From a virus (Duplodnaviria; Caudoviricetes): a stretch of DNA of 64,000 nucleotides. Below the pieces are notes generated by a model that saw only the letters and a list, made by a program, of their open reading frames with translations, did not search any database and was not told where the DNA came from. The position numbers and the translations under genes are program-made. The stretch is taken from the IMG/VR virus record IMGVR_UViG_3300042196_000418; one strand, 5' to 3'. Of this stretch, positions 29,050 through 32,436 are shown piece after piece. Numbering within the stretch: position 1 is the first letter of the stretch; each line of letters opens with the position of its first letter.

Positions 29050-29436
29050 ATGCACCCGCTTTCAATGCTATTCGGAGCAGCACTCTTCGCCCTCGGCGTT
29101 CTCGCCGTCGCGCTCGCAGATCGCATCCGCGGCCTGCGCGTCTCTCGCGATATGGCGCCGCCGCGTGAGCGGGCGCCCCGCGCGCCTTCGGTCTCCGCCC
29201 AGCCCGTCGAGACTGCCGAGCTGCTCCGGTCGACTCTCCCAAAGCCGCCCCGCGCGCCGCGCGCCGAACCGAAGGTCGCCAGCGCCGAGGACGACGTGAT
29301 CGCCGCACTCGTGACCGCGGGCTACAAGAAGTCGATCGCGACGGAAGCGGCGTGGGCGTGCAGCCCCGCCGAGCGCACGACGGTCGAGCGCTGGACGGCG
29401 GCAGCACTCCGCTGCGCGCACGGAGGGATGTCGTGA
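29050..29436 (+). CDS. Membrane-anchored protein with RuvA C-terminal (domain III)-like module
   Basis: Hydrophobic aa 4-23, Pro/Arg linker, then AEDDVIAALVTAGYKKSIATEAA...TVERWTAAALR; no OB-fold or HhH. Confidence 0.75.
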   Translation: MHPLSMLFGAALFALGVLAVALADRIRGLRVSRDMAPPRERAPRAPSVSAQPVETAELLRSTLPKPPRAPRAEPKVASAEDDVIAALVTAGYKKSIATEAAWACSPAERTTVERWTAAALRCAHGGMS

Positions 29437-29687
29437 GCCGCGTCGGCGTCTACCAGGCCGCAGCCGCTCGCTGTGGCACCACGATCGAACGTGCCTCCAA
29501 CGGCATCCCGCCGCGTATCGGCGGAGGCATCACCAAACACCCTCTCGCGCGAGACGTCGCCGAAACACTCGTCCGTGATCTCAAGGCGCTCGGTGCAGAG
29601 GCGAAGGTTTGCTCCCACGGGCCGCAGGACGATCAGGCGTTCGTCTACCTGTCGGGCTGCTCGTTCCAAAAGGGCGACCTCTCGTGA
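29433..29687 (+). CDS. Hypothetical protein
   Basis: GTGA-coupled. Confidence 0.65.
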   Translation: MSRVGVYQAAAARCGTTIERASNGIPPRIGGGITKHPLARDVAETLVRDLKALGAEAKVCSHGPQDDQAFVYLSGCSFQKGDLS

Positions 29688-29806
29688 CCAAGTTCAACCT
29701 CTCGATCGACCTTCGCACGCACGGTGATAGCGCTAGCGCTACTGCGAGCATGTTCCCATGAAGGCGAAGCTGCTCGCCGCTGCCCCGGCAGCCGATCGTC
29801 GATACG

Positions 29807-30064
29807 ATGTGCACGTCGTGCCCATTCAGACCGAACGCAGGCAAGCCAAAGATCAACGTGACGCCGGCAGAGCTGGAGAAGTTCAAGGACACTGCCCGGC
29901 GCAGCGAGTTCTACTGTCACGAGACCGTGCTCGAAGACCCGCGCACGACTGTCGGCGCCGATAGCGAGCCGTCGCCTCGCGTGCAGTCTCACTTCCGCGT
30001 CTGCCGTGGCGGGTGGGGGCTCAAGCTCAAGCACCTCGGAGCAGCGCGACGGAAAGAACAGTAG
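29807..30064 (+). CDS. Cys/His protein (CxxCPFR...FxCHxT...CxG), DUF6283-like
   Basis: Motif visible; coupled ATG at 29758 is out of frame. Confidence 0.6.
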   Translation: MCTSCPFRPNAGKPKINVTPAELEKFKDTARRSEFYCHETVLEDPRTTVGADSEPSPRVQSHFRVCRGGWGLKLKHLGAARRKEQ

Positions 30065-30067
30065 CCC

Positions 30068-30394
30068 ATGGTCAAGCTCGAACGGATCACCGAGGAGACC
30101 CTGACGCCCGAGCACACCGAGCGCGTTCGGCGTGCGGTGCTCGGCATCCCCCGCAAGAACTCAGTCCACCGCGCGATCCTCGCCGACTGCGCGCGCGTGC
30201 TCACCGGTGACAAGGCCGCTCGCGCGACCATCGTGCGCACCTGGAACGCGATGGTCACGCCGATCGACGAGCTGATCGAAAACTCCTCGCTGGGCGCCGC
30301 CATGCGGGACATCAAGGAGCGCGGCCTGGATGCGCACCTCAAGACCCTGGACGAAGAGCTGCGCCCCAAGCGTCGCGTGCGGAGGAAGCCGTAG
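30068..30394 (+). CDS. Hypothetical helical protein
   Basis: 108 aa, GC3-biased. Confidence 0.7.
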   Translation: MVKLERITEETLTPEHTERVRRAVLGIPRKNSVHRAILADCARVLTGDKAARATIVRTWNAMVTPIDELIENSSLGAAMRDIKERGLDAHLKTLDEELRPKRRVRRKP

Positions 30395-30451
30395 CGATGT
30401 CCAGGCACAACAAACCCTGCTTGCCCAGCTATCACCCAAGTGGAGCGAACG

Positions 30452-30685
30452 ATGCGCGATGAAAGCCCGGGATGGTGCAAGCCGCGCAAACCGTGCGTCG
30501 GGTGCGACGAAATTGTAGCGACTGGAATCAGCTACCAACCGCACACGTGTCTAGCCTCAACGCCTGTCGGGGCGGCTATCGGCCTTGGCCCGTGTGCTGA
30601 GTGCGAGTCGCTGCGCGACGACCCGTGCCGTTCTCCGAGCAGGCGTACGCGACTGCCCCATGCGGGTCGTAGGAGGGTTGGATGA
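30452..30685 (+). CDS. Small zinc-finger protein
   Basis: CVGC and CAEC...PC...HAGR, similar to 26153-26443. Confidence 0.5.
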   Translation: MRDESPGWCKPRKPCVGCDEIVATGISYQPHTCLASTPVGAAIGLGPCAECESLRDDPCRSPSRRTRLPHAGRRRVG

Positions 30686-31029
30686 CAAACGAACCGACCA
30701 AGGTGGCAGCGGAGAGCGAGGCTCCCGATCACCGCTTCCTCACGAACATCCACCAACGCAAACTCGAAACCGATCAGATGATCCAGCGACGGCGACGGTT
30801 CACAAACTACGCCACGCCCGCAGAGAACCTGCCGATGAAGCGATGGACCGCGGGAATCGCCGCGCTACGCCGGTTCGCTGCCGGCGAACGATGGAATCGC
30901 CGCACGAGGCGGCTCACCGTGCAGCGCCTCTACGTCGAGGGGCTGATCGATGATGTCGGCGATGACTACAACTGGAAAATAACCGAAGCCGGCAAGGAGT
31001 TCCTGTTCCGGCTCGACGGAGGCTGCTGA
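30682..31029 (+). CDS. Winged-helix-like hypothetical protein
   Basis: TVQRLYVEGLI...WKITEAGKEFL. Confidence 0.6.
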   Translation: MTNEPTKVAAESEAPDHRFLTNIHQRKLETDQMIQRRRRFTNYATPAENLPMKRWTAGIAALRRFAAGERWNRRTRRLTVQRLYVEGLIDDVGDDYNWKITEAGKEFLFRLDGGC

Positions 31030-31259
31030 TGGGTCGTCACGACCACGTCCACGTCCACGCGTCCGAGACCCGCGTCGACGTCGTGTGCGAGTCCTGTCAG
31101 GCGCCGATCAACGTCGCGTGCTCATGTGCCGAAGGAACCCTGACGTCGGACCGAGCAACGTCTGACCGTGCGTCCGAGACCCGCGTCGACGTCGTGTGCG
31201 AGTCCTGTCAGGCTCCGGTCGGAGTCGCGTGCACGTGCGCCGACGGAGTTTTCACGTGA
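31029..31259 (+). CDS. Cys/His-rich protein with internal duplication
   Basis: HDHVHVH plus two copies of ASETRVDVVCESCQAP...ACxC. Confidence 0.6.
   Translation: MGRHDHVHVHASETRVDVVCESCQAPINVACSCAEGTLTSDRATSDRASETRVDVVCESCQAPVGVACTCADGVFT
31059..31213 (+). repeat. 44-bp exact direct repeat, 111-bp period
   Basis: 31059-31102 identical to 31170-31213. Confidence 0.9.
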
Positions 31260-31262
31260 CCG

Positions 31263-31385
31263 GGGTACTTCGATACCCGGCTCAGCACCGCCACGCGATG
31301 TGTGAACCGCGAGCTCTGGGTAGCTACCTACCCACGGTCACCTCTCGCGAACTTACGTGCAGATCGGACCGGCACGCGGGTCGCA
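31263..31385 (+). promoter_or_regulatory. Two GGGTA-N6-TACCC palindromes plus sigma54-type element
   Basis: Palindromes 31263-31278 and 31318-31333; GGCACGCGGGTCGCA with GG 31371-72 and GC 31383-84. Confidence 0.75.
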
Positions 31386-31398
31386 TTGAAGGATTGCC

Positions 31399-32436
31399 AT
31401 GAACGCTCCTGCACTCCGCCTCGTTCCCGACGCGTCTCCGCACTCGACCCGCTCGACGGCGACGGCAGAGGATCCGGCCCTCCGCCCGACCTCGTTCGAC
31501 GACTACATCGGCCAGGCAGACGTGATCGCGAACCTGCGCCAATCGGTTCGCGCCGCCAAGCGCGGCGGCTGGCAGCTCGACCACATGCTGTTCGGTGGTC
31601 CTGCGGGCCTCGGCAAAACCTCGCTCGCGGCAGTCGTCGCGGCCGAGCTGGGCGGAAAGTTCCGAGCGACCTCAGCCCCCGCGATCGAGCACAAGGGTGC
31701 CCTCGCGTCGCTGCTCACCACGCTGGAGGACGGCGACGTCCTCTTCATCGACGAGATCCACGCGCTCGATCGCGCCGTCGCCGAGTGCCTGTATTCGGCC
31801 ATGGAGGATCGCGTGATCGATCTGCCGGCTGGCAAGCGGGTCATCCGCGTGCCACTGCCAAAGTTCACGCTGCTCGGAGCCACGACCCACGCAGGCAAGC
31901 TCTCCAAGCCGCTGCTCGATCGCTTCGGCTTCATCTGGCAGCTCAAGCCCTACACGCTGCCCGAGCTGGCAACGATCCTCGCCCGATCGGCGAGAAAGCT
32001 CGGCGTCGCGATCGACGAAGAAGGCGCTCTCGCAATCGCGGGGGCATCTCGCGGCACCCCGCGCATCGCCAACCGCCTGTTGCGCCGCGTGCGTGACGTC
32101 GCCGCGAACGCCGCGGACGACGGTGCGCTCGTCCTGGGCGGACTCGAAGACCTGACGTGCGCGAACGGTACCGTCAACGGTCCGCTCGTAGTCGCCGCGC
32201 TCGCGCAGCTCGGCATCGATCACCTGGGCCTCGACTCGCTCGATCGCCGCTACCTCGCGGTCGTGCTCGATCGCCCGGTGGGCATCGAGGCGATCTGCGC
32301 CGAGCTGGCCGAAGATCGCAGCACGATCGAGGACGCCGTCGAGCCCTTCCTCATGCAGGCGGGACTCATCAAGCGCGGCGGCAAGGGGCGCCTCGCCACG
32401 GAAGCGGGCCGCACGCACCTCGCGGAGGTTGCATGA
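31399..32436 (+). CDS. ruvB: RuvB-family AAA+ DNA translocase (divergent)
   Basis: LRPTSFDDYIGQ, Walker A GPAGLGKTS, Walker B LFIDEIH, LYSAMED, GATT, DRFG, RGTPRIANRLLRRVRD, EPFL. Confidence 0.95.
   Translation: MNAPALRLVPDASPHSTRSTATAEDPALRPTSFDDYIGQADVIANLRQSVRAAKRGGWQLDHMLFGGPAGLGKTSLAAVVAAELGGKFRATSAPAIEHKGALASLLTTLEDGDVLFIDEIHALDRAVAECLYSAMEDRVIDLPAGKRVIRVPLPKFTLLGATTHAGKLSKPLLDRFGFIWQLKPYTLPELATILARSARKLGVAIDEEGALAIAGASRGTPRIANRLLRRVRDVAANAADDGALVLGGLEDLTCANGTVNGPLVVAALAQLGIDHLGLDSLDRRYLAVVLDRPVGIEAICAELAEDRSTIEDAVEPFLMQAGLIKRGGKGRLATEAGRTHLAEVA

Follow-up and report, generated by a model that had tools for sequence, protein, structure and literature searches.

In the textbook RuvAB machine, RuvA provides substrate recognition and the lever against which the RuvB motor pumps DNA. 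Domain III of RuvA (D3) binds the hydrophobic surface of the RuvB hairpin and helix alpha3 and ties RuvB to the RuvA core; it also serves as nucleotide-exchange factor, a wedge for the release of ADP, and as activator of ATP hydrolysis around the RuvB ring (PMC9477746). This hairpin (L135-L152 in Escherichia coli) is the RuvA-binding element of RuvB (PMC2628435, PMC9477746). A complex of double-stranded DNA (dsDNA), RuvB and D3 has been solved without domains I-II (7x7p), with D3 alone on the DNA-bound RuvB ring. Here we describe a gene pair in a 64,000-nucleotide stretch of DNA (the window) from the virus-like element of IMG/VR record IMGVR_UViG_3300042196_000418. The first gene, at 29050-29436, encodes a 128-aa (amino acid) protein, named TM-D3, that combines a predicted transmembrane (TM) helix and a linker with RuvA domain III, and the second encodes RuvB. 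TM-D3 and this RuvB are probably a cognate pair, in which TM-D3 serves as a membrane-tethered docking and activating subunit for the motor. We class the pair as RuvAB with its targeting module swapped; in the literature, no description of a membrane-anchored RuvA domain III was found.

The two genes and their parts are located as follows (pLDDT, predicted local distance difference test of the AlphaFold2 (AF2) model; A1 and A2, family alignments).

29050-29436, plus strand: TM-D3 gene, predicted membrane-tethered RuvA domain III-only protein (128 aa)
29059-29148, plus strand: predicted TM helix and conserved basic juxtamembrane stretch (ALADRIRGLR), aa 4-33; AF2 helix 3-33, pLDDT 88-93
29149-29283, plus strand: predicted disordered Pro/Arg-rich linker, variable in length and sequence, aa 34-78; pLDDT 52-68, variable columns in A1 and A2
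29284-29418, plus strand: three-helix RuvA domain III module, aa 79-123, by PDB profile and Foldseek; pLDDT 92-96
31399-32436, plus strand: RuvB of an element-specific clade, 345 aa, by Pfam; E 3e-79 to solved RuvBs, clade support 100/99
31807-31857, plus strand: RuvB segment that is short in 40 of 40 element RuvBs and long in 31 of 31 cellular ones

The TM-D3 frame is open and has GC1/2/3 values of 0.73/0.61/0.82, typical for genes of this 63% GC window, while codon-position GC marks the antisense frames overlapping it as the usual high-GC shadows. The AF2 model of the protein shows nothing beyond the TM helix, the three-helix bundle and a disordered linker connecting them. RuvA domain I (OB fold, Pfam RuvA_N PF01330) has no match in TM-D3, and the tandem helix-hairpin-helix domain II is lacking by Pfam, hidden Markov model (HMM) and AF2 model. 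Compared with bacterial RuvA, TM-D3 is therefore without junction recognition and without the tetramer core, and carries a TM helix and linker instead.

We regard the assignment of the C-terminal module to RuvA domain III, and not to a generic UBA bundle, as solid at the family level, because the PDB profile, the Pfam counts and Foldseek all favour RuvA. For the window's own TM-D3, Pfam RuvA_C (PF07499) is the single credible match (E 0.048), with aa 79-121 aligned to profile positions 2-44 of 47. RuvA_C is matched by 54 of 70 family members (best E 2.7e-7), while UBA or UBA_7 is matched by 2-3 of the 70. When a profile of these 70 members was searched against all PDB sequences, the ten best matches were RuvA proteins aligned over domain III only (E 4e-4 to 0.07), and the first UBA domain followed at E 0.12. 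Foldseek of the AF2 model against PDB gave RuvA D3 in all of the top 15 positions, ahead of every UBA domain. Superposed on the isolated D3 chains of RuvAB cryo-EM structures, the modelled D3 reaches TM-scores of 0.76-0.80 (by target), with a root-mean-square deviation of 1.6-1.8 A and 31-36% identity. The first-pass annotation, made from the sequence alone, had proposed an N-terminal hydrophobic helix, a Pro/Arg linker and a D3-only module, and each of these parts is borne out, with UBA domains ranking below RuvA D3 by both profile and fold.

TM-D3 has the same D3 fold and core signature as bacterial RuvA (PDB 7pbl-7pbt, 7x7p/7x7q, 1ixs). The 70 family members were compared with 28 canonical RuvAs in E. 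coli numbering. Both sets have in common the equivalents of A166, L167, G171, Y172, E192, A198 and L199, and apart from E192 these positions (A166, L167, G171, Y172, A198 and L199) show no or almost no variation in either set. E. coli RuvA contacts RuvB through helix alpha7 and the C-terminal helix, with L167, L170, Y172 and L199 as contact residues. Furthermore, the signature A-L-x-x-x-G-Y ... E-x-x-x-R-x-A-L-R is kept across 213 clusters of the family.

It could be supposed that a D3-like bundle was exapted for some other partner, in the manner of a generic UBA-like module, and that the neighbouring ruvB merely records the history of a ruvA that has decayed. In favour of this, such a small fold is versatile, UBA families are matched by a few members, and the genes intervening between TM-D3 and ruvB are variable. 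Complex prediction returned no usable answer either: RuvB with D3 (aa 72-128), run with alignment inputs, scored 0.63 compared with 0.61 when an unrelated protein stood in for RuvB, so that no verdict was drawn and the result was left unused. However, the signature conserved so strongly over the 213 clusters is specific for RuvA, RuvA D3 stands above every UBA domain by sequence and fold, and, as described below, the linkage to ruvB is kept even at 50% RuvB identity and the RuvB hairpin changes in step with D3. In view of these points, we consider exaptation for another partner improbable.

In order to follow the linkage, 41 related loci were collected and both genes were placed by tblastn; synteny was counted in the 19 loci with at least 1.5 kb of sequence downstream of TM-D3. 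In the window, ruvB begins 1,963 nt downstream of the TM-D3 gene and is a genuine RuvB by Pfam, in agreement with the earlier placing of a ruvB about 2 kb downstream. The proposed co-occurrence of TM-D3 with a divergent ruvB is likewise confirmed, since a same-strand ruvB lies 0-2.6 kb downstream in 18 of the 19 loci. The sole exception (L011) is 99.97% identical to L012 until 1.2 kb past TM-D3 and then diverges, probably at an assembly or rearrangement breakpoint. In 8 loci the two genes abut or overlap: the gap is 6-9 nt in five of them (L006, L008, L014, L030, L036) and 24 nt in L029, and the genes overlap in L028 and L041. Bacterial ruvA also has ruvB immediately downstream, and in 27 of 30 cellular (myxobacterial) ruvB loci it is ruvA that holds the position of TM-D3. 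Moreover, at least 30 TM-D3 and RuvB matches have in common a longest contig of identical size.

Contig Ga0210409_10000117 (178,797 bp) contains two TM-D3/RuvB pairs (L014 and L041), about 40 kb apart and on opposite strands, and the RuvB of one pair is 77% identical to that of the window and the RuvB of the other 50%. Two divergent pairs, each with its D3 gene adjoining its own RuvB, fit cognate pairing. The linkage persists even in pairs such as L028 and L041, where identity to the window RuvB falls to 50%.

The window RuvB has the same three domains as bacterial RuvB, all above the Pfam cut-offs: RuvB_N (1e-54, 185 bits), the lid domain (4e-20, 72 bits) and RuvB_C (6e-19, 68 bits). Across element RuvBs, Walker A/B, DRFG and GTPR are invariant (alignment A3), and the basic residues of the DNA-contacting wing are retained, with R326, K329 and R331 corresponding to Pseudomonas aeruginosa R314, R317 and R319, on which branch migration depends. 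With the ATPase motifs invariant and these wing residues in place, the element RuvB looks active as a motor.

The presensor-1 beta-hairpin, at which D3 is expected to dock, was compared between 40 element RuvBs (20 from the loci and 20 sampled from the homologue list) and 31 cellular RuvBs (30 myxobacterial and that of E. coli). Its tip is 4 residues shorter in all 40 element RuvBs and of canonical length in all 31 cellular ones. In a maximum-likelihood tree, a branch supported at 100/99 separates the 40 element RuvBs from the rest. Among the cellular RuvBs, the one closest to this clade, at 57% identity, comes from a Haliangiales metagenome-assembled genome (MAG), which is only a hint at the origin of the clade because sampling was limited to one phylum and E. 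coli.

The opposite face of the interface differs as well. The equivalent of L170 is Ala, Ser or Thr in 64 of the 70 family members, while it is Leu or Met in 28 of 28 canonical RuvAs. Further switches are L194 to Trp (69 of 70), I184 to Cys (68 of 70), D188 to Arg (59 of 70) and I195 to Thr (51 of 70). As both faces have changed in step, we infer a re-coded and probably orthogonal docking pair, which suggests that TM-D3 and its RuvB are insulated from host RuvA and RuvB.

Another difference from bacterial RuvAB is that no ruvC was found nearby. HMMs built from 28 RuvA domain I-II sequences and 28 RuvC sequences were run on six-frame translations of the window and the 41 loci (402 kb). For RuvA domains I-II, nothing in the 402 kb was better than E 3.4 (positive control 4e-52); for RuvC, nothing was better than E 0.24 (0.66 in the window alone; control 3e-64), and other resolvases were not searched for. 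Queries of RuvA from E. coli and from Haliangiales, run by tblastn with an E limit of 10, matched by their D3 part only, and only at TM-D3 genes. The absence of canonical ruvA and ruvC first noticed in the window thus holds by HMM, and likewise in about 340 kb of related loci. In a survey of 224 jumbo phages, RuvC was not coupled to a RuvB-like ATPase (PMC7824862).

The hydrophobic helix of TM-D3 spans aa 4-22 and has a Kyte-Doolittle mean of 2.43 (best 19-residue segment, from aa 4). All 70 family members have a 19-residue hydropathy of at least 1.6 (mean 2.25) in a segment beginning at about residue 5. Upstream of the family helix there is no basic n-region, and Lys plus Arg average 4.4 in the 15 residues on its C-terminal side compared with about 1 on the N-terminal side. 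This positive-inside bias predicts an N-out/C-in anchor, with D3 on the cytoplasmic side together with RuvB. Few parts of the family are as well conserved as the helix and the ALADRIRGLR stretch (A1, A2), which hints at more than passive anchoring, e.g. oligomerisation in the membrane.

Alternatively, the helix could be an oligomerisation helix standing in for the tetramerising domains of RuvA, so that TM-D3 would be a soluble, multivalent D3 scaffold bridging RuvB rings. The helix and ADRIRG are more conserved than a pure anchor requires, and the Gly/Ala spacing could mediate helix packing. However, a soluble scaffold is hard to reconcile with the high hydropathy of all 70 members, the clear positive-inside bias and the lack of heptad polarity, and we consider it very unlikely. 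Oligomerisation within the membrane is compatible with TM-D3 as a tethered docking subunit.

Between the helix and D3, aa 31-78 contain 10 Pro and 7 Arg among 48 residues, and the 45 residues from aa 34 to 78 are predicted to be disordered. The linker also includes an I-P-V-V-E-like motif (about aa 52-54 in the window), which is nearly invariant in closer relatives and degenerate in the window copy, where it reads P-V-E (A1); it may be a short docking motif.

If TM-D3 is the docking and activating subunit of its RuvB, RuvA domains I-II would have been replaced by an N-out/C-in TM helix and some 45 aa of flexible linker, with D3 remaining. On the inside of the cytoplasmic membrane, TM-D3 would then recruit and activate the RuvB hexamer encoded by the element itself, and RuvB would translocate dsDNA relative to the membrane and not relative to a Holliday junction. 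The known chemistry of D3, combined with an anchor in place of the junction-binding core, leads to this picture of a RuvB ring assembled or activated at the membrane and pumping duplex DNA. The isolated RuvA D3 of 7x7p is the soluble equivalent of the proposed arrangement, but it is an engineered fragment without a membrane anchor. Candidate roles would be bringing the genome into the cell, positioning or segregating a genome of very large size, replication or recombination attached to the membrane, and packaging.

In FtsK/SpoIIIE and the type IV coupling proteins, an N-terminal membrane anchor is followed by a flexible linker that is long and rich in Pro, and by a hexameric dsDNA translocase working at the membrane. 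Their likeness to TM-D3/RuvB lies in architecture and not in descent, since Pfam gives only RuvB/AAA+ families on the element motor, and the FtsK-HerA fold motor and AAA+ RuvB are non-homologous. In TM-D3/RuvB, moreover, anchor and motor are separate polypeptides, which would be joined by the docking domain. Tentatively, the pair can be pictured as a dsDNA pump in two pieces, anchored in the membrane and functionally analogous to FtsK/SpoIIIE but made from a recombination motor, in virus-like soil elements of 200-530 kb. Equally speculative is that such a pump reels in, positions, segregates or packages their genomes, insulated from host RuvAB by the re-coded interface. Protein p16.7 of phage phi29, which organises phage DNA replication at the membrane, is also of comparable build: its roughly 130 residues comprise an N-terminal TM helix, a linker and, at the C-terminus, a small helical domain. 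In contrast to TM-D3, p16.7 contacts DNA directly through this C-terminal domain, which has no relationship to RuvA D3, and it has no AAA+ partner.

Several points weigh against a tethered, RuvB-activating D3. The window's TM-D3 is below threshold for RuvA_C (14.6 bits, cut-off 24). Membrane insertion of TM-D3 is a prediction, as is the binding of D3 to RuvB. The search for RuvA and RuvC covered 64 kb of a 288-kb element and 20-kb pieces of its relatives, and a junction-binding partner or resolvase may lie elsewhere. Finally, L167A and L170A abolish RuvB activity in vivo in E. coli (Nishino 1998, as cited in PMC2628435). The L167 equivalent is kept in the family, but the residue at the L170 equivalent is small, and unless this is made up for by the shortened hairpin, D3 may bind only weakly or without activating.

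The last point would also suit a tethered D3 that acts as a sequestrator or negative regulator, holding RuvB (its own or that of the host) inactive at the membrane and so blocking Holliday-junction processing or fork reversal. D3 alone is unable to load RuvB onto junctions, the Ala/Ser at the L170 equivalent fits a non-activating binder, and phages carry stand-alone "RuvA C-terminal domain" proteins without RuvB (PMC10454425; an ESM Atlas cluster). For example, the replication and recombination genes reported for Bacillus phage Kirov include no ruvB (PMC10454425). These phage proteins are virus-encoded and D3-only like TM-D3, but they are known by annotation only and are not detectably related to the TM-D3 family (tblastn, 50,697 phage records). 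However, the TM-D3 gene is almost always in one operon with an intact RuvB of its own whose hairpin is co-modified, which would be wasteful for a host decoy, and a re-coded interface is expected to weaken, not strengthen, binding to canonical host RuvB. A sequestrating D3 is thus unlikely in our view. The decoy of host RuvB that the first-pass annotation had offered as an alternative is disfavoured in particular, by the small L170-equivalent residue and by the constant company of its own hairpin-shortened RuvB.

On the favoured reading of a cognate, membrane-tethered docking subunit, only the handle of the RuvA lever (D3) would be retained and fixed to the membrane, with both sides of the D3-hairpin interface re-coded. 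If the binding is true, the two proteins would be an orthogonal RuvA-D3/RuvB pair of natural origin, useful for working out how the RuvB nucleotide cycle is driven by D3, and a case of an AAA+ recombination motor repurposed through a swap of its targeting module. It would also provide a handle on the biology of a large group of uncultured huge elements that is missing from phage and virus reference sets.

As for the extent of the family, 190 TM-D3 homologues were found at E <=0.01 among 90%-identity clusters. An exhaustive search gave 213 representatives of 50%-identity clusters, all of 100-180 aa and of the same three-part build (A1, A2); longer or fused forms were searched for and none was found, which is weak evidence. 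Homologues of TM-D3 and RuvB occur on contigs up to 531 kb. No TM-D3 relative was found in a pattern scan of IMG/VR viral contigs, nor by tblastn in 50,697 GenBank phage records. RuvB matches in GenBank phages are below 50% identity, mostly in short unannotated records, and are taken to be cellular-type. Where the nearest TM-D3 clusters carry a label in the ESM Atlas, it is viral (Uroviricota), which serves as a lead only.

Among 185,579 GTDB species genomes, TM-D3 occurs on one 2.9-kb contig only (L003), binned with a 9.3-Mb Haliangiales MAG that has its own canonical ruvC-ruvA-ruvB (L042/L044). The binning of this contig, and the position of the MAG's RuvB as the nearest to the element clade, are a weak hint that the hosts are possibly Myxococcota. 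The window itself is one strand-biased train of small orphan open reading frames (ORFans), and it also encodes a Ser/Thr kinase, glycosyl- and methyltransferases and a GHKL-like ATPase.

Between TM-D3 and ruvB, the window contains the following open reading frames (ORFs).

29433-29687, plus strand: 84-aa gene beginning with GTG in overlap with the TM-D3 stop codon (GTGA); not conserved in relatives
29684-29761, plus strand: truncated remnant (VTKFNLSIDL...) of the small middle gene found between TM-D3 and ruvB in L001 and L002
29807-31259, plus strand: four small ORFs of 85, 108, 115 and 76 aa that the homologous L001/L002 interval lacks; probable insertion splitting the operon

L001 and L002 have TM-D3 and ruvB in one operon, separated by one or two small genes of variable kind. 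In the window, the second promoter lies behind a probable insertion of about 1.5 kb, which also truncated the conserved middle gene. The remnant middle gene and the four ORFs absent from L001 and L002 indicate that the two-promoter layout of the window is derived and that one operon is ancestral. The 76-aa ORF at 31029-31259 has two copies of a Cys-rich unit (SETRVDVVCESCQAP.x.VACxCA.G) and weak zinc-ribbon-like matches (Fin, Phage_zn_bind_8).

Candidate regulatory sites precede both genes.

28967-28982, no strand assigned: GGGTA-N6-TACCC palindrome upstream of TM-D3, exact match, candidate activator-binding site
29020-29035, plus strand: putative sigma-54-type -24/-12 element TGGCCC-N5-TCGCA, GG 54 nt from the palindrome start and GC 16 nt before the ATG
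31263-31333, no strand assigned: two copies of the palindrome GGGTA-N6-TACCC (31263-31278, 31318-31333), at a spacing of 55 nt
31370-31385, plus strand: putative sigma-54-type -24/-12 element CGGCAC-N5-TCGCA, GG 53 nt from the proximal palindrome start and GC 15 nt before the ATG

The window contains 7 sites of this palindrome with at most one mismatch, compared with 0.23 expected. Five are exact (5019, 5073, 28967, 31263, 31318) and two have one mismatch (2984, 12342). The gene at 5154 is preceded by the same layout, a palindrome pair 54 nt apart (5019-5088) and then CGGCAC-N5-AAGCA. The motif marks an element-wide regulon and not a private link between TM-D3 and ruvB. Among the 19 related loci, 14 have a GGGT-N8-ACCC box upstream of the TM-D3 homologue, and an identical or near-identical copy of the TM-D3 -24/-12 element is present in L001 and L012. 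The promoter architecture that the first-pass annotation had seen before both genes is indeed there, but it also stands before 5154 and is element-wide. Co-regulation through two promoter copies applies to the window only, whereas the relatives share one operon in which the genes often abut.

The -24/-12 elements would presumably function as sigma-54 promoters. The putative -12 GC is only 15-16 nt from the start codons (29033-29050, 31383-31399), giving a sigma-54 leader of 3-4 nt, and the Shine-Dalgarno-like AAGG/GAAGGA would sit at or before +1. The transcripts would then be almost without a leader; otherwise the assignment to sigma-54 has to be revised.

Downstream of ruvB, two paralogous small genes (32436-32855 and 33241-33624; 41% identity over 136 aa) lie on either side of a conserved gene at 32858-33238, which is syntenic with L002:12125-12526. 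A Ser/Thr protein kinase gene is kept about 1.7-6 kb downstream of ruvB (window 38098-39705, L001:16742-18268, L002:15697-17277). In L014, the kinase gene (L014:11379-12605) directly follows ruvB, so that TM-D3, RuvB and kinase are in one compact operon.

After the second RuvB of contig Ga0210409_10000117 (L041), a PHROG match to "terminase large subunit" was considered as a link to packaging and rejected, since it covers a LAGLIDADG intein in a GHKL ATPase. By itself, this intein yields strong but misleading matches of that kind. The host protein is an 829-aa GHKL-type ATPase (L041:11403-13892; ELIANAWDAD N-box) split by the intein with its LAGLIDADG domain. The HATPase_c_3 protein of the window (506 aa, 6717-8237) may be its intein-free counterpart.

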